Position numbers and translations under genes: made by a program. From Candidatus Aminicenantales bacterium (GTDB taxonomy: Bacteria; Acidobacteriota; Aminicenantia; Aminicenantales; Saccharicenantaceae), in the NCBI GenBank assembly GCA_049513915.1, contig JBEKVN010000013.1, positions 78,265-142,264 of the forward strand: a DNA stretch of 64,000 bases, in the 5' to 3' direction. The notes beneath the pieces were generated by a model, which saw only the letters and a program-made list of their open reading frames with translations, ran no database searches and was not told where the DNA came from. This document shows, in pieces, positions 7,131 through 53,495 of this stretch. Numbering within the stretch: the stretch's first letter is position 1; each line of letters begins with the position of its first letter.

Positions 7131-9533
7131 ATGTCCATATGCGGGAAACGCGTCCCGGGAAGAATGTTTCTTCTATCCGCCCTGCTTCTGTCTCTAGCGC
7201 TCATCCCATTTGCCCAGCAGGCCAAGAAGCCGGCGGTCCTTCAGTCCACGAGCCCCGAGCTGCGGCTCAAAGGCTTCGCGGAGTATCAGGCCATGCTCAA
7301 GGCCTCGAAGTTCAAGGACCTGAAATGGCAATATCTCGGCCCGAACAACGTCAGCGGCAGGGTGACGGACGTCGCGGTTGTCGCCCCGAAGGGCAAAAAC
7401 TACACGATCTACGTCGCCGCGGCCTCGGGAGGCGTCTGGAAGACGGAGAACGAGGGCACGACCTGGGCGCCGATCTTCGAACACGAGGTCTCGGCGGCCG
7501 TCGGAGACATCGCCGTCGCCCCGTCGAACCCCCAGATCCTCTGGGTCGGGACCGGCGAGCACAACATTTTCCGGAGTTCCCAGGCCGGCTGCGGCGTTTA
7601 CAAAACGACGGACGGCGGCAAGACGTGGGCCAACATGGGCCTCACCGACACCAACACGATCGCCCGGATCGTCGTCCACCCGAAAAGTCCGGACGTCGTT
7701 TATGTCGCGGCCTCGGGACACGAGTGGACGTCGAACCCCGAGCGGGGCGTCTTCAAAACGACCGACGGCGGCAAGTCCTGGGCCAAAGTCCTCTTCGTCA
7801 ACGACCAGACCGGTGCCGTCGACCTGGTCATGGATCCGAAGGACAACGACACGCTCTACGCCGCCACGTGGCAGCGGACGCGCAAAAAATGGAACGACCC
7901 GCGGAACTTCTCCGACTACACGGGAAGTGGGATTTACAAGACCACCGATGCGGGCAAGACGTGGAATCCCATCAACGCCGGCCTTCCGGAGGCGAAGTCC
8001 CGCGGCCGGATCGGGCTCGATATCTGCCTGACGAAGCCCAACGTTCTCTACACGCTGGTCGACAATTACGAGATCGCCCGCAAGCCGACGGCCGAGGAGC
8101 AGACGGATTCCTACGGCCTCCCCTCGAGCGGGATCATCAAGGGGGCCACGGTCTACCGCTCCGACGACGGCGGCGCCTCCTGGAAACAGGTGAGCGGCCT
8201 CACACCCGAACAGAAGACCTTCATGGAACGCCACTCCAACACCTACGGCTGGGTCTTCGGCCAGATCCGCGTCGACCCCAACGACGCCGATACCGTGTAC
8301 ATCATGGGCGTGCCGTTCAGCGTCTCGACGGACGGGGGCAAGACCTTCGCCCATGTCGAGAGCCCGGGCGGCGACAACCACGCCCTGTGGATCGACCCGG
8401 ACAATTCGAATTACCTGATCAAGGGCTTCGACCAGGGCGTCGCCGTGTCCTACGACAAAGGCAAGAACTGGCGGTACTGGCAGGACGGGATTCCCGTCTG
8501 TCAGTTCTTCAATATCGCCTATGACATGGCGACGCCTTTCAAAGTCTACGGCTCGATGCAGGACCACGGCAGCTTCCGGGCGCCCGTGGACCTCAGCCAG
8601 GGCCGGGACAAGATCCCCGTCCAAAAGTTCGAGAACGCCCCCGGCGGCGAGGGCTCGAACCAGGCCATCGACCCGAACGATCCCAACGTCGTCTTTTCGG
8701 CGGGCTTCTATGGGACCATCATGCGCTCCGACTACGGCAAACCCGGCGAATATCCCGGCTGGCCCTACACCAAGTCGCTCCTGCCCGCGCCTTACGAGAA
8801 CGAGCCCCGCCTCCGCGGCCAGTGGCTCGCGCCGTTCATTCTCTCCCCGGTCAACCCCAATATCGTCTACCACGGCATGCAGTTCGTCTTCCGGTCGCTC
8901 GACAGGGGCGACACGTGGGAAAAAATCAGCCCCGATCTGACATGGAACACGGCATCGGAAATGGGCGATATCCCCTACCATACCCTCTTCGCCATCTCCG
9001 AGTCGCCGCTCCGGTTCGGCCTCGTATACGCCGGGACCGACGACGGCCGGCTCTGGGTCACGAAGGACGGCGGCAAGGCCTGGCAGGAGATCACGGCCGG
9101 CCTCCCGCCCGGGAAATGGATGTCGCGCGTCGTCGCCTCGTCCTACAAGCTGGGCACGGTGTATCTCACCCAGAACGGGAAACGGGACGACGATTTCACG
9201 CCGTACGTCTGGAAATCGGCGGACTACGGCAAGACCTGGGTGAGCATCGCCAAGGGCATCCCCGTCGGTCCGGTCAACGTCATCCGGGAAGACCCCGTGA
9301 ACGAAGACATCCTCTACGTGGGGACAGATATGGGCGTCTACGTCACGACCGACGGCGGGAAGACCTGGATGACCCTGGGGTCGAACCTGCCGACCGCCTA
9401 CGTCCACGACCTGATCATCCACCCGAGGGACAACGTTATTGTCATCGCGACCCACGGCCGAGGCATGTGGGCCCTCGACGCCAACCCGGTCAACGAGAAA
9501 GACAAGCGGCGGAACTTCTTTTACGGGGACTGA
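7131..9533 (+). CDS. secreted BNR/Asp-box repeat protein (sortilin/VPS10- or GH74-like beta-propeller glycosidase)
   Basis: Signal peptide. At least 8 S/T-x-D-x-G-x-T/S-W/F Asp-box motifs (GGVWKTENEGTTW, TDGGKTW, TDGGKSW, TDAGKTW, SDDGGASW, STDGGKTF, TKDGGKAW, TDGGKTW). Confidence 0.7.
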   Translation: MSICGKRVPGRMFLLSALLLSLALIPFAQQAKKPAVLQSTSPELRLKGFAEYQAMLKASKFKDLKWQYLGPNNVSGRVTDVAVVAPKGKNYTIYVAAASGGVWKTENEGTTWAPIFEHEVSAAVGDIAVAPSNPQILWVGTGEHNIFRSSQAGCGVYKTTDGGKTWANMGLTDTNTIARIVVHPKSPDVVYVAASGHEWTSNPERGVFKTTDGGKSWAKVLFVNDQTGAVDLVMDPKDNDTLYAATWQRTRKKWNDPRNFSDYTGSGIYKTTDAGKTWNPINAGLPEAKSRGRIGLDICLTKPNVLYTLVDNYEIARKPTAEEQTDSYGLPSSGIIKGATVYRSDDGGASWKQVSGLTPEQKTFMERHSNTYGWVFGQIRVDPNDADTVYIMGVPFSVSTDGGKTFAHVESPGGDNHALWIDPDNSNYLIKGFDQGVAVSYDKGKNWRYWQDGIPVCQFFNIAYDMATPFKVYGSMQDHGSFRAPVDLSQGRDKIPVQKFENAPGGEGSNQAIDPNDPNVVFSAGFYGTIMRSDYGKPGEYPGWPYTKSLLPAPYENEPRLRGQWLAPFILSPVNPNIVYHGMQFVFRSLDRGDTWEKISPDLTWNTASEMGDIPYHTLFAISESPLRFGLVYAGTDDGRLWVTKDGGKAWQEITAGLPPGKWMSRVVASSYKLGTVYLTQNGKRDDDFTPYVWKSADYGKTWVSIAKGIPVGPVNVIREDPVNEDILYVGTDMGVYVTTDGGKTWMTLGSNLPTAYVHDLIIHPRDNVIVIATHGRGMWALDANPVNEKDKRRNFFYGD

Positions 9534-39189: not shown

Positions 39190-40899
39190 TCAGAACGAGA
39201 ATTCGATGCCGGCGAAGAGCCGCTCTTCGAGGCTGCTGACCCGGACCCCCGGGAGCCTCCCCCACCTGTGGATGCCTTCGAAGTTCGCGAAAAGCTCGAA
39301 CGGCATCCGGGGCAATTTCCACCCGGCCCCGAGGAGATAGCGGAACCGGTTGTCGTCGCCGTGGGCGGGGTTCGTGACCTCTCCCGGGAACCGACCCCTG
39401 GAGTCGGCGGAACCCCAGGCGCCGAAGCTCGCCAGGGCACGGGCCCGGAAACCTCCCCACTCCAGGGTCGACTGTCCGGAGACCGTGCCGCCGAAGCCGT
39501 AATAATATCCGTAGTATATGAGCGTCTCTTTCATGCCCTTGACCGTGTCATCGGGAAGGGTGTGGTGGAGCTCGGTATAGGCGTTGTACGCGAGCGAATT
39601 GACCAGTCCGAAATCAAGATATGCCGCGGCCACCGTCCTGAGCTTCCACCCTCGGCGGAAGATCGTCCAATCGACGACCGGGCCCGCGATGTGAAGGAGC
39701 GCCAGCTTGTCGGTAAAATTCCGCGGGATCTCGAGATGGATTTCGGCGCCCAGCTGGAAGGGATCCACGGGCACCTGCTTGATATCGTAATAGTCGATAG
39801 GCCTCTTCCTGTAGTATTCGAAACAAGACCCGAGCCCGACGGTCAGGCTGTAACCCTCGAGGTTGTCGTCGATCTTCTGCCGGTGGGAACCCCAGGGCGA
39901 GGCTTCGAAGGAGAAATTCGTTTCGTCGGTCATCCCGTTGCGGACCGCCTGGTCGAAGGTGATGGAACTGAAATAAGTGTCCTTGACGGTTTCCCGGATG
40001 TCGCCGGGCTTCCCGTATTCCGGGAGCCCGAGGATCTGCGTGTGAACCGCGTAGTACGCGGCGGTTTCGGCGGGCCGGCCGGCCGCGGAGAGGCTCCGGA
40101 CTCCGGCCACCAAGCCGAAGTCGTGCCATCCCGGCTGCACATAGTCCCGGGCCCCCTGGTCCTTGCGGTCCAGCCAGTGGTTGATCTTAAGAACGGGGTT
40201 CATAAAGCTCAGGACCTGGTAGAAAAAGCCGGATTGGTGGGCCAGGTAGTCTCCGACCTGGTACCAGGGCTCGCCGATCGCGAATCCGCCGAGTCCGGTC
40301 ATGAACTGATCGTTGATGGAGATGACTTCCTTCCACTCAATAACGGACTCCCAAAACGTCGAGGTGACGGCCGACATCATCCAGGAATACAGCCAGGACA
40401 TGTGGCTCGTCCGGGCGAACTCATAATAGATCCCGCCGGCAAGGCTGTGAGTCCAGTTGAGCTTGAAGTTGTTCGAGTCGAAGCGCCAGCCGGCGAGGAA
40501 AAGGAGCCTGTTGACTTGGCTGTCCAGGGTTAATTTGAACTGCCAGTCCTCCCGGAAGTGGCTTTTATACCGGATCCAGTAGCTTCCGCCAGAAAAGCCG
40601 ACAAAGATGCCGAGCTCGATCCAGGCCCGCCCCGGCTTGGGATTTTGAAGGATGTCGGGCGCGGCCGGCGCGGACGGCTCTCCCATTTTGCGGAAACCGG
40701 GCAGGACGAAAGAGCGGCTCCAGTCGGCGGGCGCCTCGGAAACTTCAAAGCCTGACGGCGCCGCCAAGCTGAAATGCACCCTTTCCGCGGGCCCACCCGG
40801 GCCGTCCTGCGAGCCCGCGGCGGCAGGCCGCGCACAAAGCCAAATCAGACAAACAGCGGCCAGTCCGGCGGCCAAAGGGTTCGGTCTCTTGCTCTGCAC
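39190..40899 (-). CDS. outer-membrane beta-barrel / secreted protein of unknown function
   Basis: Signal peptide MQSKRPNPLAAGLAAVCLIWLCARPAAA. Aromatic-rich alternating pattern with C-terminal GIEFSF. Confidence 0.5.
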   Translation of the reverse strand: MQSKRPNPLAAGLAAVCLIWLCARPAAAGSQDGPGGPAERVHFSLAAPSGFEVSEAPADWSRSFVLPGFRKMGEPSAPAAPDILQNPKPGRAWIELGIFVGFSGGSYWIRYKSHFREDWQFKLTLDSQVNRLLFLAGWRFDSNNFKLNWTHSLAGGIYYEFARTSHMSWLYSWMMSAVTSTFWESVIEWKEVISINDQFMTGLGGFAIGEPWYQVGDYLAHQSGFFYQVLSFMNPVLKINHWLDRKDQGARDYVQPGWHDFGLVAGVRSLSAAGRPAETAAYYAVHTQILGLPEYGKPGDIRETVKDTYFSSITFDQAVRNGMTDETNFSFEASPWGSHRQKIDDNLEGYSLTVGLGSCFEYYRKRPIDYYDIKQVPVDPFQLGAEIHLEIPRNFTDKLALLHIAGPVVDWTIFRRGWKLRTVAAAYLDFGLVNSLAYNAYTELHHTLPDDTVKGMKETLIYYGYYYGFGGTVSGQSTLEWGGFRARALASFGAWGSADSRGRFPGEVTNPAHGDDNRFRYLLGAGWKLPRMPFELFANFEGIHRWGRLPGVRVSSLEERLFAGIEFSF

Positions 40900-40990
40900 C
40901 TCGGGTTCCCTCTTTTTTAAAAGCTAACATAGGCCTTTCCGAGCATTACGTCAAGACCGGCGGGCGCCCTCCGGGGGGAAATCGGCCTTG

Positions 40991-41091
40991 AAGAATGGGG
41001 ACGAAGAATGGGGACGGTCCTGGTTTTCCATCCGCGGCCCAACCGGGATTTCTCTCGCCTATCCTAGAAAACCAGGACCGTCCCCATTTTC
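40991..41091. repeat. family B hairpin element copy 1 (25-bp inverted arms GAATGGGGACGGTCCTGGTTTTC / GAAAACCAGGACCGTCCCCATTTTC)
   Basis: Arms at 41003-41028 and 41067-41091 around a 38-nt loop. A partial tandem duplicate GAAGAATGGGGAC precedes the left arm. Confidence 0.6.
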
Positions 41092-41226
41092 GTGGTCCGC
41101 GTCACCCTGAAGCTCCACGGACTTGCGTCCGTGGAACCCCAAGAACGGGATTGACAGGCCCCGGACAGCGGCGTTATCATAAGCGGCGTGATTGTCGGGG
41201 GTTTTTCAAATCAACGGAGGTAAAGA

Positions 41227-42729
41227 ATGATGAGAAAGAAACTGTTCGTCCGGCCCGCCCTCGCGCTGGCCGTCCTCGTCCTGCTCAACCTGGCCCTGGC
41301 GGCTCAGTCCTTCGAGGGCGTCAAGAAGCAGGTCCGGACCCATGTGCTGCCGAACGGCATGAAATTCATCGTCCTCGAGCGGCACGACGTCCCGGTGGCA
41401 TCGTTCCATGTCTACGCGGACGTCGGCAGCGCCAACGAATCCTACGGCATTACGGGCATTTCCCATATCCTCGAGCACATGGCTTTCAAGGGGACCACCA
41501 CGATCGGGACGAAGGACTACGCCGCGGAATCGAAGGTCCTCGAAGAGCTGGACAATGTCTACGACCAGATGAAGCGAGAAGAGGCCAAGCCCATCGCGGA
41601 CAAGGCGAAAGCGGCCGAACTCAAAGCCAAGTTCGACGACCTCGAAAAGAAAGCCAAGGACTACGTTGTCAACAACGAGTATTTCGACATGATGATGCGG
41701 CAGGGCGACGCCGGCGTCAATGCCTACACGTCCTCCGACGCCACCCAGTACATCAACTACCTTCCCAGCAACCGCCTGGAATTCTGGATGGCCATGACCT
41801 CGGACCGGTTCCTGAACCCCGTCTTCCGGGAATTCTACAAGGAGCGGGACGTGATCATGGAGGAGCGGCGCCTCGGGGTTGAAACCCAGCCCACGGGCAA
41901 GCTCATGGAGGATTTCGTGGCCGTCGCCTTCAAGGCCCACCCGTACCACCACGAAGTCGTCGGGCACATGTCCGACCTCCAGGCCATCCGGCGGCAGGAC
42001 GTCGAGGACTATTTCAAGAAGTTCTACAGCCCAAGCAATCTAACCGTTGGGATCGTGGGCGACGTTTCGGCGGACGAAGTCTTTCGGCTGGCCGACCTCT
42101 ACTTCGATCGCATCCCGAGCGGGCCCAAGCCCGAGCCCGTCCGGACCAGGGAGCCCGAGCAGTGGGGCGAGAGGCGCGTCATCGTCTCCGCCAAATCCCA
42201 GCCGTTCCTGTTCATCGGTTTCCATGTCCCGGACGCGAAAAGCAAGGACGCCCCGGCCCTCGAGGCCCTCGTCAACATCGTCGGACGGGGCCGGTCCTCC
42301 CGGCTCTACCAGGCCCTGGTCAAGGACAAGAAACTGGCGATCCAGACCAGCTGCATGAACGGGTTCCCCGGGGACAAGTTCCCGAACCTCGTCGTCTTCT
42401 ACGCGATTTCGGCCCAGGGAAAGACCTCGGCCGAATGCCAGGCGGCCATCGAGGAGGAGATCGAGAAGATCAAGAAGGAATCGGTGACGGAAGACGAGCT
42501 GACCAAGTTCAAGCGGAGCACCATCAAGGGGCTCCTCGGCCAGATGAAATCCAACCCCCGGATGGCCGCGATGCTAACCTACGCCGACGTGGTCCTGGGC
42601 GGCTATGAAAAGGCGTTCGACCAGATCGAAGACTACAAAGCTATCACCGCCGAAGACGTCAAACGGGTCGCCAACACGTACCTCGTGAAAACCAACCGGA
42701 CCGTCGGCGAGATCATTCCCGAGAAGTAA
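41227..42729 (+). CDS. M16 family zinc peptidase (pitrilysin-like), catalytic subunit
   Basis: Signal peptide. Inverted zinc motif HILEHMAFKG (HxxEH) and a downstream E. Confidence 0.85.
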   Translation: MMRKKLFVRPALALAVLVLLNLALAAQSFEGVKKQVRTHVLPNGMKFIVLERHDVPVASFHVYADVGSANESYGITGISHILEHMAFKGTTTIGTKDYAAESKVLEELDNVYDQMKREEAKPIADKAKAAELKAKFDDLEKKAKDYVVNNEYFDMMMRQGDAGVNAYTSSDATQYINYLPSNRLEFWMAMTSDRFLNPVFREFYKERDVIMEERRLGVETQPTGKLMEDFVAVAFKAHPYHHEVVGHMSDLQAIRRQDVEDYFKKFYSPSNLTVGIVGDVSADEVFRLADLYFDRIPSGPKPEPVRTREPEQWGERRVIVSAKSQPFLFIGFHVPDAKSKDAPALEALVNIVGRGRSSRLYQALVKDKKLAIQTSCMNGFPGDKFPNLVVFYAISAQGKTSAECQAAIEEEIEKIKKESVTEDELTKFKRSTIKGLLGQMKSNPRMAAMLTYADVVLGGYEKAFDQIEDYKAITAEDVKRVANTYLVKTNRTVGEIIPEK

Positions 42730-42748
42730 GGGAAGTGAGGAGACACCC

Positions 42749-44185
42749 ATGAATAACGCGAAGACCATCCAGAAAGCGATCGCCGGGCTTTGCCTCCTGG
42801 CCGTTCTCTTCGGGGCCGCCTACGCACAGAAAGCGCCGAAGGACAAGTTCGCCTTCGGGCCCCTTCACCCGATCAAGATGCCCAAGGTCGTGGAGGCCGA
42901 ACTGCCGAACGGCCTCAAGCTCTTCCTCGTCGAGGACCCCGAGTACCCGACGATCGACCTGTACGCCATGGTGCGCACCGGCGCCGTTTTCGAGCCGGCG
43001 GACAAGACCGGGCTGGCCTCCATCACGGGGTCCGTCCTGAGGACGGGTGGCACGCAGACGAGGACTGGCGATCAGATCGATAAGGAGCTCGAGACTCTGG
43101 CCGCGACCGTGGAGACCGGCATCGGGGACATGTCCGGGTCTCTCCGGGTGTCCGTGCTCAAGGGGGATTTTGACAAGGCCGTGGCCATCCTCGCCGACAT
43201 CCTGACCCATCCCGCCTTCCGGGAGGACAAGATCAACCTGGCCAAGATCCAGCAGAAGTCCATGATCTCCCGCCGCAACGACGACATCGGCGGCATCACC
43301 TACCGCGAGTTCGACCGGCTGATCTACGGGAAGGACAGCCCGTACGCCCGGCAGATCGAATACGCGACGATCGACGCCATCACCCGTCAGGACCTGGTGG
43401 ATTTCTACAACGCGTATTTCCATCCCAACAACACCCTGATGGCGGTCTGGGGAGATTTCAAGGCGGATGACATGGCCGCCAAGTTGAAAACAGCCCTGGG
43501 AGCATGGACCAAGGGCCGGCCGTCGGCCGCGCCCTGGCCCAAGGTCAATTATGAATTCAAGTCGACGGTCAACTATATCGAGAAGCCCGACGTCAACCAG
43601 GCCAACGTCATGCTCGGCCACATCGGCGGCCTCATGAACAACCCCGACCTCGCCGCCCTGAACGTCATGAACCAGATCCTGTCCTTCGAGCGCATGTTCA
43701 AGCGGGTCCGGACGGACGAGGGCCTGGCCTACAGCGTCTGGGGGAGCTACGGGGCCTCCTACGTCTATCCCGGGACCTTCAACTGCGGCGTCCAGACCAA
43801 GTCCCAGTCCACGGTCTACGCCATCAACATCATGCTCCAGGAGCTGAAGAAGATCACCGAGCGGGAAGTGACGGACGAAGAGCTGGCCAAGGCCAAAGAC
43901 GGCTATCTCAATTCCTACGTTTTCGACTTCGAGAGCAAGGCCCAGATCGTCAACCGCCTCATGTCCCTGGCGTATTACGGCTATCCCCGGGATTTCGCCG
44001 AGAAGCTCAAGCAGGGCGTCGAGAAAGTCACCAAGGCCGACGTTCTCCGGGTGGCCAAAAAATATATCCAACCGGGCCAGGTCCAGATCCTCGTCGTCGG
44101 GAAGAAAGAGGATTTCGACAAGCCGCTGTCCACGCTGGGCGCCGTGAACGTCATCGACATCACGATCCCCGGCCCGAAGAAATAG
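42749..44185 (+). CDS. M16 family peptidase, non-catalytic partner subunit
   Basis: M16 fold without HxxEH. Signal peptide. Confidence 0.75.
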   Translation: MNNAKTIQKAIAGLCLLAVLFGAAYAQKAPKDKFAFGPLHPIKMPKVVEAELPNGLKLFLVEDPEYPTIDLYAMVRTGAVFEPADKTGLASITGSVLRTGGTQTRTGDQIDKELETLAATVETGIGDMSGSLRVSVLKGDFDKAVAILADILTHPAFREDKINLAKIQQKSMISRRNDDIGGITYREFDRLIYGKDSPYARQIEYATIDAITRQDLVDFYNAYFHPNNTLMAVWGDFKADDMAAKLKTALGAWTKGRPSAAPWPKVNYEFKSTVNYIEKPDVNQANVMLGHIGGLMNNPDLAALNVMNQILSFERMFKRVRTDEGLAYSVWGSYGASYVYPGTFNCGVQTKSQSTVYAINIMLQELKKITEREVTDEELAKAKDGYLNSYVFDFESKAQIVNRLMSLAYYGYPRDFAEKLKQGVEKVTKADVLRVAKKYIQPGQVQILVVGKKEDFDKPLSTLGAVNVIDITIPGPKK

Positions 44186-44963
44186 GCCTGTTCGCCGGCT
44201 GGAATTCGGGGCAAGAGGGCGGCTTGACACCGAGATAGACAACCGCGATGCCGCCGGACAGCCGGCGGAAGAGGACGTCGTCGAAGCCTGCCTCCCTGAT
44301 ATTCTCTGCTATTTCCTCTGGCGCCGGGAAGACCCGGATGGACTCGGCCAAATAGCGAAAGGATCCTCCCCCGCGGCAGATCAACCGTCCCGCGAGCGGC
44401 ATCCAGCAAAAAGAGTAGGCGTGATAAAGGGCGCGGAAAAACCGGTTAACGGGGAGGGAGAACTCGATGACCATCAGTTTTCCTCCCGGCTTGAGGACGC
44501 GCAGGAACTCGCCGAGGCCTTTTGCGGGATGGGCCAGGTTGCGGAGGCCGAATCCGATGGTCACGGCGTCGAAAGTCCCGCCGGGAAAACTCAGATCCTC
44601 GGTATCGCCCTGGACGAAGCCGATCGGGGCCCTGGCCGCCGGCCCGCGGGCCCGGCTCTCGCCGACCTCCATCATGGCCCGGCTGAAATCATAGACCACG
44701 ACCTGGCCGGCGGGACCGGCCGGGCGGGCGACGAGCCTGGCCAAGCCCGCCGTTCCGCCGCAGGCATCCAGAACAAAGTCCCCTTCCCCGACGCCCAGGA
44801 GGCTCACCGCGTTCTTCCGCCAGCGGGAATCGAGTCCGAAACTCAGCACCGTATCGGCGAAGTCGTAGGCCCGGGCGATTTCGTCGAACTCGGCCCGGAC
44901 GAGGCGCTTTTTTTCGGCCGGAGTGACCTCCCGGTATCCGAAAGGGACTGTTTCTTTGGTCAA
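44160..44963 (-). CDS. ubiE: class I SAM-dependent methyltransferase, UbiE/MenG (demethylmenaquinone / ubiquinone C-methyltransferase) family
   Basis: VLDACGGTAG motif I (written in read direction). Family length and motif spacing. 3-prime end overlaps the convergent M16 gene. Confidence 0.7.
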   Translation of the reverse strand: MTKETVPFGYREVTPAEKKRLVRAEFDEIARAYDFADTVLSFGLDSRWRKNAVSLLGVGEGDFVLDACGGTAGLARLVARPAGPAGQVVVYDFSRAMMEVGESRARGPAARAPIGFVQGDTEDLSFPGGTFDAVTIGFGLRNLAHPAKGLGEFLRVLKPGGKLMVIEFSLPVNRFFRALYHAYSFCWMPLAGRLICRGGGSFRYLAESIRVFPAPEEIAENIREAGFDDVLFRRLSGGIAVVYLGVKPPSCPEFQPANRPISSGRGS

Positions 44964-45112
44964 CGCATCTCCCGGCCGCAGTTTCCACGGTCCTGCACTG
45001 GGTCCTAATATAGAGGATTACCGGCCCCGACTAAAGACTTTTCGTTCTTCGGCGATCAACCCGGGAGCCGGCCTTGAATTCGCCCGGGGGCTCTGCTATA
45101 AGCAGGGGGTGG

Positions 45113-45202
45113 GGAAAATGGGGACGGTCCTGTTTTTCCGGCTGCATCCCAAGCGAGACTTCTCTTGCTTATATAAGGAAAAACAGGACCGTCCCCATTT
45201 TC
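45113..45202. repeat. family B hairpin element copy 2 (arms GGAAAATGGGGACGGTCCTGTTTTTCC / GGAAAAACAGGACCGTCCCCATTTTC)
   Basis: Arms at 45113-45139 and 45177-45202 around a 37-nt loop similar to copy 1. Preceded by TTGAAT-17-TATAAG at 45075-45103. Confidence 0.6.
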
Positions 45203-45267
45203 AGTCCCCATTTGCAGACCCCGGCTCCGGGGATACGCCCGCTCCGCAGCGCGAAAGGGAGGATCCC

Positions 45268-48075
45268 ATGAAACAGCGCAATCCATCCCGTCAGGCGGGG
45301 ATCTTCGCCTTTTACGCCTTCATTGCTCTTCTCCTAGTCGCGCCCCTGCCGGTCCGGGCCGCGGCCAATGACCTCCAGTATCTCGAGCTCGCGACGCGCG
45401 ACGGCCTCGCCGTGCGCTCTTACCAGGTCTCGAGCGGCGAAATGTTCATCCTTCCCTCCTCCCGGCCGCTCTTTTCGGTCAGGGTCGACAACGTCCTCGT
45501 CTCGACGCTTGACGCGAAGGTCAGCCAGGAGCAGGACGTCATCGCCGCCCGTCTGACCGACGGAGTCACGGGACGCTTCCGGGTCGGCCGCCGGTCCGAC
45601 CGGGGCTGGAGGATCGACATCGTATTCGAAAACGGCTCCAAGAAGCCCGTCGTCCTCGAGAACATCGTCCCCTTCGGCGAAGACCCGCGGGACATCTTCA
45701 TCACCGGCTACGGGCCGCCGGCCCTGGCCCGGGCGGGGCTCTTCCGCCCGGGGAAAAAGCCGGTCAGCGTGATCCTCCCCGATAACGCTTGGGAGCTGGG
45801 CTACGGAGCGGTCGAGCGGCCCGGAGGTTATTCTCTCTGCGGGCTGGCCCGGCGCGGCAAGGGCGCAAAAGCCGAACTCCGGCGCTACCGGACGGTCCTC
45901 GAACCCGGCGGAACCGTTGAATACACGATCTACGCCGACGTCTACTCCGGCGAGTGGCAGGACGGGCTCCGGGCCATGTTCCACGGACGCCGGCTGTTCG
46001 ACCTCGAGAAGTTCGACCGCGCCCTCTACGACCGTCCGGACCTCGCCTGGGTCAGGAAGAGTTTCGTCATGGTGCTGCAGATGGCCTGGGACCGGGAGTT
46101 TTTTGACCGGACGAGCGGCCGCTACGAAATCGAGCCGTTCCTCGAAAAGAGCCGCGCGGTCCTCGGCGGTTACGACGTTTTCGGCATCTGGCCGACCTGG
46201 CCCCGGCTCGGGCTCGACGACCGGAACCAGTGGGACCTCTATCGCGATCTCCCGGGCGGTCTCCGGGGACTGCGTGAGCTCGCCGATCTCGCCCACAAGC
46301 GAGGCACGAAGTTCTTCGTCGCCTACAATCCCTGGGACACGGACACGCGGCGGGAAAAACCCTTCGAAGGGATGGCCGGCCTCATCCGCGATCTCGATGC
46401 CGACGGAGTCGTTCTCGACACCATGGGCGGGTCCACCAAAGAGGCCCAGAAGGCTGCCGACAGCGTCAAACCCGGGGTCATTATGTACAGCGAGGGCATG
46501 CCGGTTCCCGCGGACATGCCCGATATCGTCGCAAGCCGCGTCCACGACGCGCTTGTGCTATCGCCCGTCCTCAACCTCAACCGTCTCATCGAGCCGGAGT
46601 TTACGATCTTCCGGGTCGCCCAGCTCGCCGACGGAGAGCTCCATCGCGAGGTGGCCGTCGCCTTCTTCAACGGCTACGGCGTCGAGCTCAACGCCTTCAA
46701 GGCCGGACGTCCGGACTGGGTCGCGCCGGACCTGCGGACCCTGGGCCGGGCGGCCATGATCCTGAGGGCCAACGCGTCCGTGCTGAACACGCCGGCGTGG
46801 ACGCCGCTCGTCCGGACGCTCGAAGACGGCGTCTGGGTCAACGAATGGCCGGGGGGCGGCAAGACGATTTACACGATCTATTCGGAAGAACCGGCGGGAT
46901 TCGAAGGTCCCCTCTTCTCCGCGACGGCCGGCGGCGGCAGCCATTTCGTCGACCTCTGGAACCACGCCGAGGTCGAGCCCATCGTCGTCGACGGCGAGAG
47001 CTCGGTGCCGGCCTCGCTCCCGCCCTACCCCGCCTCCGCTTCGGGGACGCGGCGCGAAGGCGCCATCGGCTGCGTTGGCCGCTTCGAGAAAGCATTGGAA
47101 GCCGCAATCGACGGGGACGTGCTCAGGCTGAAGTCCTCGCGCGGGGACAGGATCCTGGTCTGGCGGGGAAATCCCTCCTACGAAAAAAGGCCCGAATCGC
47201 TCGAGGCCGGAGCATGGGCCCGGCCCCTCGCGGGGCTGCTCGGCTCCTACCGGGGAAAAATCGTCATCCAGCTCATGGATGGGACCGAGCTGCTGGACGA
47301 GCGCGTGCTCACCATCGAGCCGGGGACACCGCTTAGGACGAGCCCGGCCGAGAAGACGGAGCCCGCGGCCACCGCTCCTCCGGGGATGGTTGATGTCCCC
47401 GGCGCCGACTATGAATTCCGCGTGAACAAGGCCGATACGTTCATTCCCCTGCCGGATTTTTCGAGGCCGCGCAAGGTCGCGGTGGATCGTTTCTTCATGG
47501 ACGCGCGGCCCGTGACCAACCTGGATTTCAAGCAGTTTCTGGATGCCACGGGATACAGGCCCGCCGACGCCGCGAACTTCCTCAAGCACTGGACGGGCGG
47601 GAAGATCCCGGCCGGCCAGGCCGATTATCCGGTCGTCTACGTGAGCTTCGAAGACGCGAAAGCTTACGCCAAGTGGGCCGGAAAGCGCCTTCCCACGGAG
47701 ATCGAGTGGCAGTATGCCGCCCAGGGCACGGACGGCCGGACCTGGCCGTGGGGGAAGACGTTCACGAAAGGGGCGTGCAATGACGGCCTCGGCCGGGCCA
47801 CGCCTGTCAACGCATTCCCCCGGGGGAAAAGCCCGTTCGGGGTCCTCGACCTCGTCGGGAACGTCTGGCAGATGACGGCCGACGTTTACGATACGTCAAG
47901 CTATACCTACGTTATCATCCGCGGCGGCAGCTTCTGGGACCCGACTTCGAGTTCCTGGTACCTGAAGGGCGGCCCGCAGCCCTTGGACGAGCACCAGGTG
48001 CTCCTGCTCGTGTCCCCGGGCTTCGACCGCAGCCCGAACGTCGGATTCCGCTGTGTCAAGGACGCGACCCGCTGA
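45268..48075 (+). CDS. secreted multidomain protein: N-terminal glycoside-hydrolase-like TIM barrel plus C-terminal FGE-sulfatase (SUMF1/formylglycine-generating enzyme-like) domain
   Basis: Signal peptide at MKQRNPSRQAGIFAFYAFIALLLVAPLPVRAAA; ORF-track start 44923 rejected. C-terminal 300 aa has FGE-sulfatase hallmarks (VSFEDAKAYAKWAGKRLPTEIEWQYAA, GNVWQMT, RGGSFWD, NVGFRCV). Confidence 0.65.
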   Translation: MKQRNPSRQAGIFAFYAFIALLLVAPLPVRAAANDLQYLELATRDGLAVRSYQVSSGEMFILPSSRPLFSVRVDNVLVSTLDAKVSQEQDVIAARLTDGVTGRFRVGRRSDRGWRIDIVFENGSKKPVVLENIVPFGEDPRDIFITGYGPPALARAGLFRPGKKPVSVILPDNAWELGYGAVERPGGYSLCGLARRGKGAKAELRRYRTVLEPGGTVEYTIYADVYSGEWQDGLRAMFHGRRLFDLEKFDRALYDRPDLAWVRKSFVMVLQMAWDREFFDRTSGRYEIEPFLEKSRAVLGGYDVFGIWPTWPRLGLDDRNQWDLYRDLPGGLRGLRELADLAHKRGTKFFVAYNPWDTDTRREKPFEGMAGLIRDLDADGVVLDTMGGSTKEAQKAADSVKPGVIMYSEGMPVPADMPDIVASRVHDALVLSPVLNLNRLIEPEFTIFRVAQLADGELHREVAVAFFNGYGVELNAFKAGRPDWVAPDLRTLGRAAMILRANASVLNTPAWTPLVRTLEDGVWVNEWPGGGKTIYTIYSEEPAGFEGPLFSATAGGGSHFVDLWNHAEVEPIVVDGESSVPASLPPYPASASGTRREGAIGCVGRFEKALEAAIDGDVLRLKSSRGDRILVWRGNPSYEKRPESLEAGAWARPLAGLLGSYRGKIVIQLMDGTELLDERVLTIEPGTPLRTSPAEKTEPAATAPPGMVDVPGADYEFRVNKADTFIPLPDFSRPRKVAVDRFFMDARPVTNLDFKQFLDATGYRPADAANFLKHWTGGKIPAGQADYPVVYVSFEDAKAYAKWAGKRLPTEIEWQYAAQGTDGRTWPWGKTFTKGACNDGLGRATPVNAFPRGKSPFGVLDLVGNVWQMTADVYDTSSYTYVIIRGGSFWDPTSSSWYLKGGPQPLDEHQVLLLVSPGFDRSPNVGFRCVKDATR

Positions 48076-48102
48076 TTCTCTTAAGAAAGAGGATTGCGCG
48101 GG

Positions 48103-48170
48103 AGGGCCGAAGGGGAATGGCCGGAACGTCATGTGCGGCTTAGCGCAAGACGCACTCTGGAGTGGAGGCC
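48103..48170. repeat. family C conserved leader block, copy 2 (uninterrupted)
   Basis: GGCCGAAGGGGAATGGCCGGAACGTCATGTGCGGCTTAGCGCAAGACGCACTCTGGAGTGGAGGCC. Matches the two halves of 29208-29400 that flank its insertion. Confidence 0.45.
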
Positions 48171-48222
48171 ATCCCCGAGGCCCTTTCAAAGACGCACAGT
48201 CACGAGACCCGTCCGACCTTTC

Positions 48223-48251
48223 TTGAGCCCGGCGCGAGCGCTGTGTATAAT
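48223..48251 (+). promoter_or_regulatory. sigma70-like promoter TTGAGC-17-TATAAT upstream of M16 peptidase
   Basis: -35 at 48223-48228 and -10 at 48246-48251. Paralogous to the promoter at 29407-29435. Confidence 0.45.
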
Positions 48252-48281
48252 GGGCTTTTCAATCTCCCTGGAGGTGACGGC

Positions 48282-49607
48282 ATGCCGAAAAAAACGTGGC
48301 TCACGATCCTCTTCCTGTCAACATTCGCCCTGTCCCTTTCGGCGGCGTTCAAGAAGGAGGATGTCAAGGTCTACCAGCTCGCGAACGGGCTCAAGGTCCT
48401 CCTCGTCGAGGACCATAACATCCCCAACATCGCCCTCTACACGTTCTTCCGCGTCGGTTCCCGCAACGAGCGGCCCGGCCTAACGGGCGTGTCCCACTTC
48501 ATCGAGCACATGATGTTCAACGGAACGCCCAAGGTCGGGCCCGGCGAGTTCGACCGGCGCATGGAATTCCGCGGCGGGTCGAACAACGCCTATACGGCGG
48601 ACGACATGACGGGCTACACGGACTGGTTCCCGGCCCCGGCCCTCGAAGCCATGATCGACATGGAGGCCGACCGGATGCAGGGCCTGGCCTTCGTTCCCGA
48701 CGTCCTGGAGTCGGAGCGGGGCGTCGTCGCCTCCGAGCGCCGGATGGGCGTTGAAAACAACAACGACTCGATCCTCAACGAGAACGTCCGGGCCACCGCC
48801 ATCATGGCCCACCCGTACCACTGGGACGTCATCGGCTGGATGAGCGACATCCTGAGCTGGCGCCGCGACGAGGTGATCGCCTATTACCGCACATACTACG
48901 CGCCGAACAACGCTATCCTGGTCGTCGTCGGCGACTTCGAGCCGGCCAAAACCCTGGGCCTCATCAAGAAATATTACGAGCCGATCAAGGCCTCGATCGC
49001 GCCCCCCTCCGTTTCGACGGTCGAACCGCCCCAGATGGGGCCCAAGAGCGTCCTCATCCGGAAAGAAGCGCAGGCGCCGTCGTTCATGGTCGTCTGGCAC
49101 GCCCCGAACGCCAAGGATGCCGATTTCCTGCCGCTTTCGATCCTGGCCAAGCCGCTTCTCCAAGGCGAGAGCAGCCGCCTCTACCGGCGTCTGGTCCGCG
49201 AAGAGCAGCTCGCGATCCGCGTCGGGGGCGGAGCGCAGGAGACCATCGACCCCTTCCTGTTCACGATCGACGTCAAGCCCCGGCCGGGCGCCGACTTCGA
49301 CAAGATCGACCGGGTTATCGAGGAAGAACTGGCCAAGATCAAGAACGAGGGGATCACGCCGAAGGAGTTCGAGAAGGCCATGAACATCGTCCGGAACGAT
49401 TTCTACATGGGCCTCCAGACGATCTCCGGAAAGGCCAACCAGCTCGGCGCCTATGAGCTTCTCTACGGCGATTTCGGAAAGCTCTTCACCATCATGGACG
49501 ATTACGCGGCCGTCAAGATCGAAAGGGTGAAGGAGGTCGCGAAGAAATATCTCACGGAGAATAATAAAACGATCGGGAAGCTCGTCCCCGAGGGAGGTGC
49601 CAAGTGA
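48282..49607 (+). CDS. M16 family zinc peptidase, catalytic subunit (second pair)
   Basis: Signal peptide at MPKKTWLTILFLSTFALSLSAA; ORF-track start 48162 rejected. HFIEHMMFNG HxxEH motif. Confidence 0.85.
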   Translation: MPKKTWLTILFLSTFALSLSAAFKKEDVKVYQLANGLKVLLVEDHNIPNIALYTFFRVGSRNERPGLTGVSHFIEHMMFNGTPKVGPGEFDRRMEFRGGSNNAYTADDMTGYTDWFPAPALEAMIDMEADRMQGLAFVPDVLESERGVVASERRMGVENNNDSILNENVRATAIMAHPYHWDVIGWMSDILSWRRDEVIAYYRTYYAPNNAILVVVGDFEPAKTLGLIKKYYEPIKASIAPPSVSTVEPPQMGPKSVLIRKEAQAPSFMVVWHAPNAKDADFLPLSILAKPLLQGESSRLYRRLVREEQLAIRVGGGAQETIDPFLFTIDVKPRPGADFDKIDRVIEEELAKIKNEGITPKEFEKAMNIVRNDFYMGLQTISGKANQLGAYELLYGDFGKLFTIMDDYAAVKIERVKEVAKKYLTENNKTIGKLVPEGGAK

Positions 49608-51004
49608 AAAAGCTCGCCCTGACAGGTTTCGCGCTTGTTCTGGCCGCCGTCCTGGCCGCCCCGGCGCCGCTCGCCGCGGCCGCCCAGCTGCCGGCGCCGG
49701 AAAAGCTCGTCCTCAAGAACGGAATCACGGTCTATTTTCTCAAGAACTCGGACCTCCCGATCGTCAGCTTCCGGATGGTCGTCCGGGGCGCCGGGTCGGC
49801 CTTCGAGCCGGCCGCGGCCGAAGGCGCGGCCAACCTGGCCGCGACCCTGATGATGAAGGGCACGGCCAAAATGGACGCGGACGCCGTCGCCGAAGCCCTC
49901 GATTTCATGGGCGCCAGTCTCGGCATCTCCGCGGCCGACGAGTACGCCCAAGTCAGCGGCGACAGCCTTTCCCTGCACTTCCCGCGCCTCATGGAGATCG
50001 CCGCGGACTGCCTCACGGCCCCCGCCTTCAAAACCGAGGAGTTCGCCAAGGAGCGGGCCCGGAGGATCGACAGCCTCAAGTCCGCCAAGGACAATCCAGG
50101 GGCGGCGGTCCGCTATTACTTCCAGAAGGCCTACTTCGGCGGCCACCCGCTCGGCCACCTGGCCACGGGAACGGAATCGTCCCTGCAGAAGATGACCCTT
50201 CAGGCGGTCAAAGACTTCTACGCCCTGCATTTCCGGCCCGACACGGCCATCGCGGCCGTCGTCGGCGACATCGAAAAGGACAAGCTCGTCGCCCTCCTCG
50301 AATCGACGGTCGGCCGCTGGGCCAAGCCCGCGAGCGCCGCGCCGTCCGACGTCATCCCCGCTCTGCCGCAGCCGAAGGGCAAGACACTCCTCCTCGTCGA
50401 TAAGCCCGACGCCACCCAGGCCTATTTTGTCCTGGGCGCGCCCGGGTACGCCATGGGAGACAAGGTGACGCCTCAGGCCGCGGTCATGAACACGCTATGG
50501 GGCGGACGGTTCACCTCCTGGCTGAACACCGAGCTCCGGATCAAGCGCGGGCTGACCTACGGCGCTTCGAGCGCGTTCCGAACCTGGGTCGCCGGCGGGA
50601 TTTTCACGGCCAGCTCCTACACGAAAAACGACAAGATCGGCGAGATGCTTGACATCACGTTCGGCCTCCTCGGGAAGGGCGCCAAAGAGGGGTTCGCGGC
50701 CACGGACATCGAGAGCAGCCGCAACTATATCCAGGGGCAGTTCCCCCCGACGCTCGAAACCAACGCCAGCAAGGCCGGGGCCTACGTCCGCGTGGCCTTT
50801 TATAATCTCGGCTTCGACTACTACGACAAGTACCTGGCCGCGATCGGGAACGTTTCCGTCGAAGCAGCCAAGGCCGCGGCGGCGGCCCTCCTGCCGCAAG
50901 ACGATTACGTCCTGGTCGTCGTGGGCAAGGCGGCCGACATCCGGCCCCTGCTCAAGAAATTCGGGACCTGGCAGGAAAAGAAGATCACGGACCCTGATTT
51001 TTAG
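49604..51004 (+). CDS. M16 family peptidase, non-catalytic partner (second pair)
   Basis: Signal peptide. M16 fold without HxxEH. Start overlaps the upstream stop. Confidence 0.75.
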   Translation: MKKLALTGFALVLAAVLAAPAPLAAAAQLPAPEKLVLKNGITVYFLKNSDLPIVSFRMVVRGAGSAFEPAAAEGAANLAATLMMKGTAKMDADAVAEALDFMGASLGISAADEYAQVSGDSLSLHFPRLMEIAADCLTAPAFKTEEFAKERARRIDSLKSAKDNPGAAVRYYFQKAYFGGHPLGHLATGTESSLQKMTLQAVKDFYALHFRPDTAIAAVVGDIEKDKLVALLESTVGRWAKPASAAPSDVIPALPQPKGKTLLLVDKPDATQAYFVLGAPGYAMGDKVTPQAAVMNTLWGGRFTSWLNTELRIKRGLTYGASSAFRTWVAGGIFTASSYTKNDKIGEMLDITFGLLGKGAKEGFAATDIESSRNYIQGQFPPTLETNASKAGAYVRVAFYNLGFDYYDKYLAAIGNVSVEAAKAAAAALLPQDDYVLVVVGKAADIRPLLKKFGTWQEKKITDPDF

Positions 51005-52053: not shown

Positions 52054-52061
52054 TTTTTTTT

Positions 52062-52245
52062 ACATCAGGAGAGGCTCGATCCTAACCGATCGGACCCGGC
52101 AACCTGGGGCGGACACCCGAGGTGCTCACTCGCCAGCGGCGAGGATGTGGTCGCGAAAGCGAACGCGGCAACCAAGTGTCCAACGGCCGACAAACCCGCC
52201 TTCCTGATGATAGAGAGGTGGGTTTTTTTGCGGCCGCGCATTGAC
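52062..52245 (+). promoter_or_regulatory. SAM riboswitch (SAM-I clan: SAM-I/SAM-IV-like) in metK 5-prime leader
   Basis: P1 strands CATCAGGAG (52064-52072) and CTTCCTGATG (52200-52209). Conserved core AGGAGAGGC...GGACCCGGCAACC resembles SAM-I ...AGAGAGGCGGAGGGA...GCCCGGCAACC. Followed by a hairpin plus T7 tract. metK lies directly downstream. Confidence 0.55.
52191..52228 (+). terminator. putative riboswitch expression-platform terminator (ACCCGCC...GGTGGGT + TTTTTTT)
   Basis: 7-bp stem with one G-U around a 16-nt loop, overlapping the P1 3-prime strand, followed by a seven-T run at 52222-52228. Confidence 0.3.
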
Positions 52246-52310: not shown

Positions 52311-53495
52311 ATGGCCACCGATTTCGTTTTCACTTCGGAATCCGTGTCCGAAGGCCATCCCGACAAGATGGCGGATCAGATCTCCGACGCGGTGCTCGAC
52401 GCGATCCTGGCGCAGGACCCCGACGGCAAAGTCGCCTGCGAAACGATGCTCACGAAGAACGTGGCGATCGTGGCCGGCGAGCTGGGCACCGACGCCCGCA
52501 TCGACCCGGTGCAAATCGTGCGCGACGTCGCCCGGGAGATCGGGTACACGGACGCTCATTGCGGCTTCGACCACAAGACCTGCAAGGTCTTCACGTATCT
52601 CGGCCGGCAGTCGGCCGACATCGCCCGCGGCGTCGACCGGAGCGGCGGCGAGATCGGCGCCGGCGACCAAGGCCTGATGTTCGGATACGCCACCGTCGAG
52701 ACGCCCGAGCTCATGCCCCTGCCGATCCGCCTGGCCCACCGGCTCGTCGAAAAGCAGGCGGCGGTCCGCAAGGCCGGACTCCTGCCCTGGCTCCGGCCCG
52801 ACGCCAAGTCCCAGGTGTCCGTCCGGTACAAAAACAAGCGGCCCGTGGCCGTCGAGAAGGTCGTCCTGTCGACCCAGCATGACAGCGAGGTCAAGGACTC
52901 GACGATCCGCGAAGGTGTCATCGCCGAGATCATCGAAAAAGTCATCCCGGCCGAACTCCGGCGGGGGAACGTCGAATATCTTATCAACCCGACGGGCCGG
53001 TTCGTCATCGGCGGCCCCGTCGGCGACACCGGTCTGACCGGCCGGAAGATCATCGTCGATACCTACGGCGGCAGCTGTCCCCACGGCGGCGGCGCTTTTT
53101 CCGGCAAGGACCCGACCAAGGTTGACCGCTCGGCGGCCTACGCGGCCCGCTATATCGCCAAGAATATCGTGGCCGCGGGCCTGGCCGACCACTGCACGGT
53201 CCAGCTGGCCTACGCCATCGGCGTCATCGAGCCGTTCTCTCTCATGGTCAACATCCACAGCGGCGGCCGAATCAGCGAGCGGCAGATCGAAGAGGCCGTT
53301 CGCAAGATTTTCCGGCTGACGCCCAAGGGCATGATCGAGATGCTCGACCTCCGGCGGCCCATCTACCAGAAGACGGCGGCCTACGGTCACTTCGGGCGCG
53401 AGCTCCCGGAATTCACCTGGGAGCGGACCGACAAGGTTCAGGAGTTGCGGGCCTATTTCGGCTACGAGAGCCTGGACGCGCTCAGCCGATCCTGA
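52311..53495 (+). CDS. metK: S-adenosylmethionine synthetase
   Basis: Hallmark motifs [25 protein letters not shown] and [32 protein letters not shown]. Confidence 0.95.

Follow-up and report, generated by a model that had tools for sequence, protein, structure and literature searches.

Structure and context of the two elements

Two copies of a non-coding palindromic element, hereafter copy A and copy B, lie in intergenic regions of the 64-kb window that we analysed, that is, the whole stretch of DNA, taken from a Candidatus Aminicenantales metagenome-assembled genome (MAG; 63.6% G+C). Copy A is located between a DUF3943 gene and two tandem genes for M16 peptidases, and copy B between a ubiE-type methyltransferase gene and a gene with an FGE-sulfatase domain (Table 1). 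The distances from the elements to the start codons of the downstream plus-strand genes are 135 nt for copy A (to 41227) and 65 nt for copy B (to 45268), in agreement with a preliminary description of this DNA, which had placed them 65-135 bp upstream of such genes. That description left a structured 5' leader or small RNA (sRNA), a long operator and a transposable element of the miniature inverted-repeat kind (MITE) as explanations. Here we describe the structure, the relatives and the probable origin of the element.

An inverted-repeat search detected perfect 22-nt arms in copy A (41007-41028 and 41067-41088) around a 38-nt loop, with the pairing extending outward to about 41002/41093 over one mismatch, and perfect 26-nt arms in copy B around a 37-nt loop. 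The perfect 25-bp arms previously ascribed to copy A were therefore slightly overstated, and although its left arm does occupy the range first assigned to it, the string quoted for it was shorter than those coordinates. The two copies are 82% identical over the whole element, loops included, when aligned, and the sole difference between their arms is altered on both sides (GGTTTTC/GAAAACC versus GTTTTTC/GAAAAAC), so that the near-identical arms and related loop reported for a second copy at 45113-45202 were confirmed. No more than these two copies are present in the window. A 16-mer of the arm occurs four times without mismatch, and five matches were found at up to three mismatches, a number reached by none of 100 shuffles.

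The predicted RNA folds of the elements have free energies of -53 to -56 kcal/mol (z -6.7 to -9.6) and the predicted DNA folds -33.5 and -35.2 kcal/mol (z -7.6 and -10.4), and in both cases none of 200 shuffles was as stable; the hairpins are far beyond chance. When single arms were folded alone, the values were -5.0 kcal/mol (z -1.6) for copy B and -1.7 kcal/mol (z +0.9) for copy A. Since single arms barely fold, the possibility that each arm is a repetitive extragenic palindromic (REP) hairpin of its own was ruled out. Each copy also carries a partial tandem copy of its outer arm end on one side. The one just 5' of copy A had been noticed before, and the right edge of copy B mirrors the left edge of copy A, reading GTCCCCATTTTCA and then GTCCCCATTTGC at 45191-45215.

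A strong sigma70-like promoter is predicted for the M16 operon and a promoter-like site for the divergent DUF3943 gene. If these predictions are right, copy A is not part of a leader but separates two divergent promoters. The promoter hexamers of the FGE-sulfatase-domain gene were read by eye; the promoter scan omitted this site, the -10 hexamer of which ends in G. Judged from these hexamers, copy B would start about 5 nt past the predicted transcription start and thus lie inside the 5' untranslated region (UTR).

Table 1. Positions of the elements, their surroundings and related features. Positions refer to the window unless a fetched locus (L number) is given.
Feature	Position	Strand	Remarks
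DUF3943 gene	39190-40899	-	Left of copy A
Promoter-like site of the divergent DUF3943 gene	40926-40954	-	Predicted; conservation in L199 read from sequence
Inserted segment, copy A plus flanking extras	40976-41146		171 nt; missing from L199, L203, L204
Partial tandem copy of outer arm end, GAAGAATGGGGAC	40990-41002	+	Ends right after GGGGAC; directly precedes 41003-41015
Copy A left arm	41003-41028	+	Reads GAAGAATGGGGACGGTCCTGGTTTTC; core GGGGACGGTCC at 41010-41020
Copy A loop	41029-41066	+	38 nt; loose homology with loops elsewhere in the family
Copy A right arm	41067-41091	+	Core GGACCGTCCCC at 41075-41085
Second small hairpin module, CTGAAGCTCCACGGACTTGCGTCCGTGGAA	41107-41136	+	Inside the copy A inserted segment; DNA fold -10.2 kcal/mol, z -4.9; single-copy in the window
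Sigma70-like promoter of the M16 operon, TTGACA-18-TATCAT	41151-41180	+	Predicted; also present in orthologs without the element; inserted segment ends 1 nt 5' of the -35
M16 peptidase genes, two in tandem	41227-42729, 42749-44185	+	Right of copy A
ubiE-type methyltransferase gene	44160-44963	-	Left of copy B
Promoter-like site of the FGE-sulfatase-domain gene, TTGAAT-17-TATAAG	45074-45102	+	Predicted; TTGAAA-17-TATAAG in ortholog L207
Copy B left arm	45114-45139	+	Core at 45120-45130
Copy B loop	45140-45176	+	37 nt
Copy B right arm	45177-45202	+	Core at 45186-45196
Copy B partial tandem copy of outer arm end, GTCCCCATTTGC	45204-45215	+	Beside the right arm
FGE-sulfatase-domain gene	45268-48075	+	Right of copy B
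Truncated tandem copies in the family	40990-41015, 45191-45215; L225 520-560; L221 589-633; L226 575-612
Small hairpin module next to family copies	41107-41136; L153 8314-8341; L130 768-791; L145 9046-9068

Empty sites in orthologous loci

Comparison with orthologous loci revealed empty sites for both copies. In L199, L203 and L204, in which the M16 protein is 94-95% identical and the DUF3943/M16 synteny is kept, window position 40975 is joined directly to 41147. By BLAST, window 39190-40975 and 41147-44993 abut each other in L199, with the junction at 4922/4921. The promoter hexamers on either side of the copy A site are kept in these three loci, and in relatives no more than about 19 bp separate the DUF3943 promoter-like site and the M16 -35. 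Copy A is also missing from the more distant orthologs L201, L202, L205 and L206 (77-87%). In L200 (88%), a solo unit, AAAAAGGGGACGGTCCTGTTTTTCC, is found 2 nt 5' of the -35, and it is an independent insertion. With respect to copy B, the 85% FGE-like ortholog L207 keeps the promoter, the downstream CCCGGCTCCGGGG leader hairpin and the ribosome binding site and lacks the element; it is shorter by about 95 nt, which corresponds to copy B plus its partial tandem copy. No core motif was found upstream of the 79-80% identical FGE orthologs L208 and L209.

The region around copy B also varies in gene content. Window 44994-48220, comprising copy B and the FGE gene, is a variable island, where L199, L203 and L204 have an opposite-strand DUF6600 gene instead; a DUF6600 gene is also found at this island in L205 and L206, and L200 lacks 44186-48221, including ubiE.

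Based on the empty sites, both copies are lineage-specific insertions at points of structural variation and not conserved cis-regulatory parts of operons. Both represent selfish DNA that was inserted recently, and they mark gene-order differences between close relatives. These comparisons bear on the proposal that the elements are a conserved cis-regulatory leader RNA or sRNA for the downstream secreted-protein genes. Such an RNA would be compatible with the very stable hairpin, with the motif shared by the two loops, and with the location of both copies on the same strand upstream of plus-strand genes. However, the elements are missing upstream of 77-95% identical orthologs, copy A precedes a conserved M16 promoter, and in the wider family described below the loops occur in both orientations and diverge freely, next to unrelated genes. 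Rfam searches, run by gathering score and by E-value, gave no match at the window elements, and in 20 other loci they gave sub-threshold matches resembling microRNA precursors only, as generic long hairpins do. We regard the conserved leader RNA or sRNA as largely refuted and very improbable, and the link to genes for secreted proteins as coincidental.

A repeat family in many bacterial phyla

A metagenome scan with the pattern GGGGACGGTCCTG...CAGGACCGTCCCC returned 81 stretches. About 30 of them belong to the subfamily of the window, on Aminicenantes-type contigs, with arms of the form GAAAATGGGGACGGTCCTG[G/T]TTTTCC. The loops of this subfamily are loosely homologous and occur in either orientation, and many of its copies are found on at least 13 large contigs of one sample. 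The variable arm position +13 is altered on both arms in six copies and on one arm in five, and the covariation check suggested earlier gives at this position no clear signal of selection beyond the recent origin of each copy.

When species-representative genomes were scanned with GGGGACGGTCC-N40-70-GGACCGTCCCC, inverted core doublets were found in at least 117 genome stretches, whereas by our own arithmetic chance alone would yield about 1-2 in the whole collection; since some matches may be chance or highly diverged, 117 is no clean family size. A few matches with poor inner arms (L019, L084, L085 and L096 among them, and GC-rich ones of the L092/L045 type) may be of this kind. The hosts include Lachnospiraceae and other Clostridia, Syntrophomonas, Myxococcota and other 'Deltaproteobacteria' (including Desulfobacterota), Planctomycetia, Coriobacteriia, Aminicenantes/Acidobacteria, and Legionella and other Gammaproteobacteria. 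The 11-nt core GGGGACGGTCC is constant, a T follows it in 346 of 379 distinct units, and the outer and inner arm segments vary between genomes. Self-complementary flanks with a stem of at least 6 bp were found in 26% of units across the superfamily, compared with 6% in the control. Units are dispersed as dimers (in the window and in about 30 metagenome stretches), as solo units (L200) and as clusters (Lachnospiraceae, L210).

Among adjacent core pairs at most 130 nt apart, 214 were in +/- orientation, 64 in +/+ or -/- orientation, and none in -/+ orientation. Since -/+ pairs are absent, the doublets are always oriented like terminal inverted repeats (TIRs) around a transposase gene. All-against-all clustering of the open reading frames (ORFs) around about 200 copies gave no recurrent neighbour protein; the genes on either side of the copies have unrelated housekeeping roles, and in L126, L052, L086 and L092 the ORFs that lie between two copies are ordinary as well, GNAT, MoxR and MFS being examples. 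The doublet had no match in 2.9 million viral contigs, and a BLAST search of a plasmid collection gave no match for the window element or the Legionella element; the element is not phage- or plasmid-borne as such. A text search of the literature for the core retrieved unrelated primer and rRNA strings only.

The small hairpin module inside the copy A inserted segment has counterparts in this family. A module of this kind (CTGAAGCTCCACGGACTTGCGTCCGTGG) is found in both orientations at four unrelated loci, at a distance of 8-48 nt from family copies (Table 1), and it may be a companion repeat or a piece of a larger composite element.

The constancy of the core also raises the possibility of a paired operator or nucleoid-protein site, in which a dimeric protein would bind two sites, 65 bp apart, with the quasi-palindromic GGGGAC-G-GTCC. 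The core, almost a palindrome, is conserved across phyla, and the two cores are separated by about six helical turns. However, the T that prevails after the core spoils the palindrome, the copies are not conserved at orthologous promoters, the same arms are found mostly at the 3' ends of unrelated genes in many phyla, and the protein that does occur beside the arms is a transposase, as described in the following section. We consider the long operator, which had also been among the first proposals, highly doubtful.

Family copies are intergenic and often lie 2-30 nt past a stop codon; by a crude gene call, 81 are between codirectional, 29 between convergent and 20 between divergent genes. An exapted RNA element would be compatible with this placement, acting as a bidirectional intrinsic terminator or a 3'-end mRNA stabiliser in the manner of REPs, or, in the case of copy B, as an attenuator or stabiliser in the 5' UTR. 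All four Legionella copies are at 3' ends, the GC-rich stem of the Aminicenantes subfamily has, on both strands, an A-tract and ATTTTC at its flanks, and copy B is within a predicted 5' UTR. On the other hand, both window copies are at 5' ends in divergent regions, with copy A upstream of both promoters, and a terminator scan called neither of them. The copies are missing in orthologs, which argues against a conserved function tied to these genes, and the outer arm segments are not T-rich in other genomes. Based on these observations, an exapted RNA element seems improbable for the window copies.

The Legionella copies just mentioned are those of L052 (Legionella steigerwaltii), at 688-766, 1208-1299, 4494-4572 and 7743-7821, four within 8 kb. 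Their arms are double modules (GGGGACGGTCC followed by GGGACGGACYCC), and 5-21 nt separate each copy from a flanking gene's 3' end, a placement that is REP- or terminator-like.

A set of orthologous copies shows how such loci change. The copies in L141 (1577-1653), L192 (415-491), L176 (1652-1728) and L160 (179-254) lie 13-16 nt past the stop codon of the same gene and have identical arms and diverged loops, the loop being inverted in L176. The synteny of the right flank stops exactly at the element in L160 and L176, and L192 contains a tandem duplication of the right arm plus part of the loop. These rearrangements point to recombination at the copies. The L176 loop, inverted relative to L141, L192 and L160 with the arms unchanged, would also suit an inverton, in which a site-specific recombinase flips the 38-nt segment. 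However, the synapses of known Hin/Gin-type invertases require more than 38 nt between 26-bp sites, no invertase is encoded nearby in the window, and the inversion in L176 coincides with a synteny break, so that recombination between copies explains it. An inverton is therefore extremely improbable.

Association with RAYT-like Y1 transposase genes

Two loci from Clostridia connect the arms with a transposase. L114 encodes, at 1974-2720 on the minus strand, a protein of 248 amino acids with a Pfam Y1_Tnp match (E 7e-9) and HVH and YIMNNP motifs; its best NCBIfam model is REP-associated tyrosine transposase (RAYT), at 52.6 bits and under the cutoff of 80. The gene is bracketed by inverted units, one of which, GATGTGTCATCGGGGACGGTCCTTTTTGACACAT, lies about 120 nt 5' of the start, while its near-identical partner abuts the stop codon. 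A dispersed doublet that lies 1.8 kb off on the same contig has arms matching these gene-flanking units without a difference over 35 nt. In L210, a Butyrivibrio-type contig, a homolog 51% identical to the L114 protein is flanked by 32-nt TIRs (CATGACACGGGGACGGTTCT...) that carry GGGGACGGTTC. The TIR geometry is the same as in L114, and a nested doublet with identical arms lies 850 nt away.

Seven further RAYT-like genes were retrieved from annotated records by tblastn, and six of the seven carry TIRs that are placed in this same way and have GGG(G)WCRG as their core. These TIRs are AGGGACGGTTC in Acetoanaerobium, GGGGTCAGGCC in Sporomusa, GGGTCAGAG in Pseudoalteromonas, GGGGTCAGACCCC in Rhodospirillum rubrum, GGGTCAGGCC in Legionella adelaidensis, and AAGAATAAAGGGGACAGATCTATTTTCCC in Pseudomonas aeruginosa, the last being strikingly close to the window arm GAAGAATGGGGACGGTCCTGGTTTTCC. 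The core forms at the fetched RAYT-like genes are GGGGACGG, GGGACGG, GGGGACAG, GGGGTCAG and GGGTCAG, and GGGGACAG variants are present within the family of the window element itself. The RAYT-like proteins have 245-295 amino acids, with HVH and YIxxNP motifs and a C-terminal extension beyond the Y1 domain.

RAYT-like genes with long TIRs have been named 'TIRtrons' and their enzymes 'TIRYTs', with a shared TIR motif GGGGWSAS, and their repeat families are moderately abundant, occurring singly, as dimers or in clusters (Di Nocera et al. 2013, PMC3733652). TIRYTs have been equated with TnpA-Y1 subclass 2.1, with flanking inverted repeats GGGG[AT][CG]A[CG], and typical REPs were not found near subclass 2.1 genes (Quentin et al. 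2018, PMC6006769). Their counterpart, RAYT group 1, has the widest distribution of all groups, in 21 bacterial classes, and its flanking 16-mers are only moderately repeated (Bertels et al. 2017, PMC5581495).

Many RAYT-like homologs (protein list P0242-P0360) are on contigs of only about 0.9-1.5 kb. If high-copy repeats on both sides of the gene interrupt short-read assembly, contigs of this length are to be expected.

Truncated tandem copies and the GGGGAC junction

The partial tandem copies of the window recur in the family. The outer 12-13 nt of the arm is tandemly repeated outside one arm only, and the junction always comes immediately past GGGGAC (or GGGTC). Of 543 cores, 78 had an additional GGGAC at most 30 nt outside the arm, the figure for a control window being 10 of 543. 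Clean tandem cases with a period of 11-16 nt number about 18, from at least six lineages and with both window copies included, and truncated tandem copies are also present at the TIRs of the transposase genes of P. aeruginosa, Acetoanaerobium and Legionella. They may be a scar of cleavage or strand transfer, or a product of hairpin-driven slippage. We know of no described counterpart of such a one-sided duplication of 12-13 nt.

RAYT group 1 / TIRYT is the largest and least understood RAYT group. We tentatively propose, at somewhat less than even odds, that the core GGGGACGGTCC(T) marks pan-bacterial equivalents, for this group, of REP doublets forming hairpins (REPINs), and that the truncated copies are possibly the scar of GGGGWC↓ cleavage or strand transfer. 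If this is true, the scar would offer a directly testable mechanism for an uncharacterised enzyme class.

Origin of the window elements

The elements are repeated, non-coding, inserted relative to close relatives and always in TIRtron polarity, and in other genomes their arms are shared with the TIRs of a resident Y1 transposase gene. Based on these observations, we suggest, with a probability of about 0.72, that each copy is a non-autonomous MITE/REPIN-like TIR doublet, most likely mobilised in trans by a RAYT-like Y1 transposase that is encoded elsewhere in the genome. The MITE option of the preliminary description is thus supported. Many more copies at random positions had been named there as favouring a MITE over a regulatory RNA, and copies do occur in dozens of unrelated intergenic contexts, with empty sites in orthologs and with identical arms at transposase genes elsewhere.

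In the reading that we propose, the element consists of two inverted TIRs of about 26 nt, each with an A-rich outer part, the core GGGGACGGTCCT and a T-rich inner part, around a spacer of about 38 nt. The arms would belong to the class of TIRs that flank RAYT-like Y1 (HUH) transposase genes, that is, TIRtrons encoding TIRYTs. Since the doublets are always oriented as TIRs around a gene, each doublet may be the remnant of a TIRtron from which the gene was deleted. A cognate TIRYT encoded elsewhere in the Aminicenantales genome would mobilise it in trans. Other HUH Y1 enzymes, such as the TnpA of IS200/IS605 and the TnpA-REP of E. coli, act on single-stranded DNA. The transposase would likewise act on single-stranded DNA, where the doublet would fold into one long hairpin, and cleavage or joining would take place right after GGGGAC, as the recurrent truncated tandem copies suggest. 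Effects on neighbouring genes would be incidental to the landing sites: copy A would move two divergent promoters apart, and copy B would put a hairpin of -56 kcal/mol, followed by AUUUUC, at about +5 of the 5' UTR.

Here, we need to consider several observations that weigh against this origin. First, no transposase gene was found among the Pfam-scanned ORFs of the window, the matching genes being all ordinary housekeeping genes, and a local hidden Markov model (HMM) of 120 RAYT homologs, run against the window and about 1.6 Mb of fetched loci, detected L114 only. Second, the window core GGGGACGG agrees with the published GGGGWSAS at seven of eight positions, with G rather than A at position 7. 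Third, the C-terminal helix-turn-helix (HTH) of subclass 2.1 was not recovered, as no Pfam HTH family matched the two Clostridia proteins at E<10. Fourth, the indel at copy A is 171 nt compared with an element of 100 nt, and is therefore not a clean insertion of the doublet alone. Fifth, neither a target-site duplication (TSD) nor a defined target was established at either copy or at the empty sites; unlike those of a DDE-type MITE, the flanks have no direct repeat apart from a possible CGGG of 3-4 nt at copy A, and the outer arm segments are inverted, not direct. Finally, to our knowledge, transposition of TIRYT-associated repeats has never been demonstrated experimentally.

Several of these observations would also suit a palindromic repeat that spread in this genome without a Y1 transposase, either as a MITE moved by a DDE enzyme or as a decaying family propagated by recombination and slippage. 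No cognate transposase was found in the window or the Aminicenantes loci, the synteny breaks, loop inversion and tandem duplications at copies indicate recombination and slippage activity, and CGTC-type REPs have been reported without a dedicated transposase (PMC3733652). However, in both Clostridia genomes where a transposase lies next to family arms, the enzyme is of the Y1 type and the arms are identical, and a related core is found at six of the seven further RAYT-like genes. The lack of a DDE-MITE-type TSD and the strict +/- orientation of the arms, as in a TIRtron, also argue against it. Spread without a Y1 enzyme is thus unlikely, and we favour mobilisation in trans by a RAYT-like Y1 transposase.

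Other identities were rejected on comparison. CGTC-tagged REPs have an unpaired terminal CGTC, a stem of 8-9 bp starting with A/T pairs, a 4-5-nt loop and a CCA tail (PMC3733652); in the window element, CGTC is internal (GGACCGTCCCC) and paired in a long hairpin, and the architecture differs from that of the CGTC-REP superfamily. Class 3 TnpA-Y1 with a CnGA foot did not fit by motif, and the RepRanger paper contained no relevant motif. Sites resembling sigma-54 or extracytoplasmic function (ECF) sigma factor promoters, hix or inverton sites, parS, and tRNA or transfer-messenger RNA (tmRNA) acceptors did not fit by spacing or distribution.

Two features farther along the window deserve mention. 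The M16 (pitrilysin-type) peptidase genes form two tandem pairs within 10 kb (41227-44185 and 48162-51004), which are nearly adjacent in relatives such as L200. A SAM-I/IV riboswitch aptamer (Rfam RF01725; 42.2 bits, the gathering score being 41.1) lies at 52057-52185 (+), directly 5' of metK, the gene for S-adenosylmethionine synthetase, at 52311-53495 (+), an ordinary and coherent arrangement.

Implications and comparison with known systems

Annotation as riboswitches, sRNAs or operators should be avoided for the hairpins that precede the peptidase and FGE-like genes. The insertions could also alter the expression of neighbouring genes, since copy A parts divergent promoters and copy B adds a strong hairpin to the 5' UTR. 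More broadly, a cross-phylum palindromic repeat is tied to TIR-flanked RAYT-like tyrosine transposases, and the class is extended to Aminicenantes. The conserved core and the recurrent GGGGAC junction could define a recognition and cleavage site and guide the biochemistry of these poorly studied HUH enzymes. The window element is an Aminicenantes addition to the known TIRYT/RAYT-associated palindromic repeats, and in this respect the finding is largely ordinary.

Four known systems resemble the element to different degrees. First, IS200/IS605 elements and palindrome-associated transposable elements (PATEs) share the Pfam Y1_Tnp superfamily and an element-end-like sequence that recurs on one flank; this one-flank repeat recalls the target or cleavage tetranucleotide kept at the left flank of IS608-type elements. 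In contrast to the window element, however, their ends are differing subterminal hairpins and not long inverted repeats. Second, classical MITEs (Correia/NEMIS, RUP and ERIC) are likewise non-coding, about 100 bp long with TIRs of 25 bp, located near promoters and gene ends, and able to form a long hairpin in transcripts. They are derived from DDE insertion sequences (IS) and have TSDs, for example TA, whereas the window elements have no TSD and the associated enzyme, found elsewhere, is of the Y1 type.

Third, in REPINs of RAYT groups 2 and 3, including the REPs and bacterial interspersed mosaic elements (BIMEs) of E. coli and Pseudomonas, two inverted short repeats and a short spacer also form one long hairpin. 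They are similarly intergenic with a preference for 3' ends, and have a single-copy Y1 HUH transposase gene flanked by the same repeats and no classical TSDs. A conserved GT(A/G)G tetranucleotide stands at the 5' foot of each REP hairpin of these groups. The window arms differ from them in having no GTAG at either end (nor CGTC at the foot) and in having the conserved motif in the middle of the arm; in addition, a single window arm hardly folds, and the associated transposase scores below the NCBIfam RAYT cutoff.

Finally, the TIRs of TIRtrons (PMC3733652, PMC6006769, PMC5581495) are inverted repeats of about 20-35 nt with a core of the GGGG-W-S-R-S type, as are the arms described here. In other genomes, a RAYT-like Y1 gene lies between them, the 5' TIR being located 50-160 nt upstream of it and the 3' TIR at its stop codon, and extra copies occur as singles, dimers and clusters with a wide and patchy taxonomic spread. 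There are differences as well. The window core GGGGACGG has G instead of A at motif position 7 and is conserved over 11-12 nt compared with the published motif of 8 nt, and the Aminicenantes host and the doublet-dominated organisation are additions to the descriptions in PMC3733652, PMC6006769 and PMC5581495, in which neither is found.

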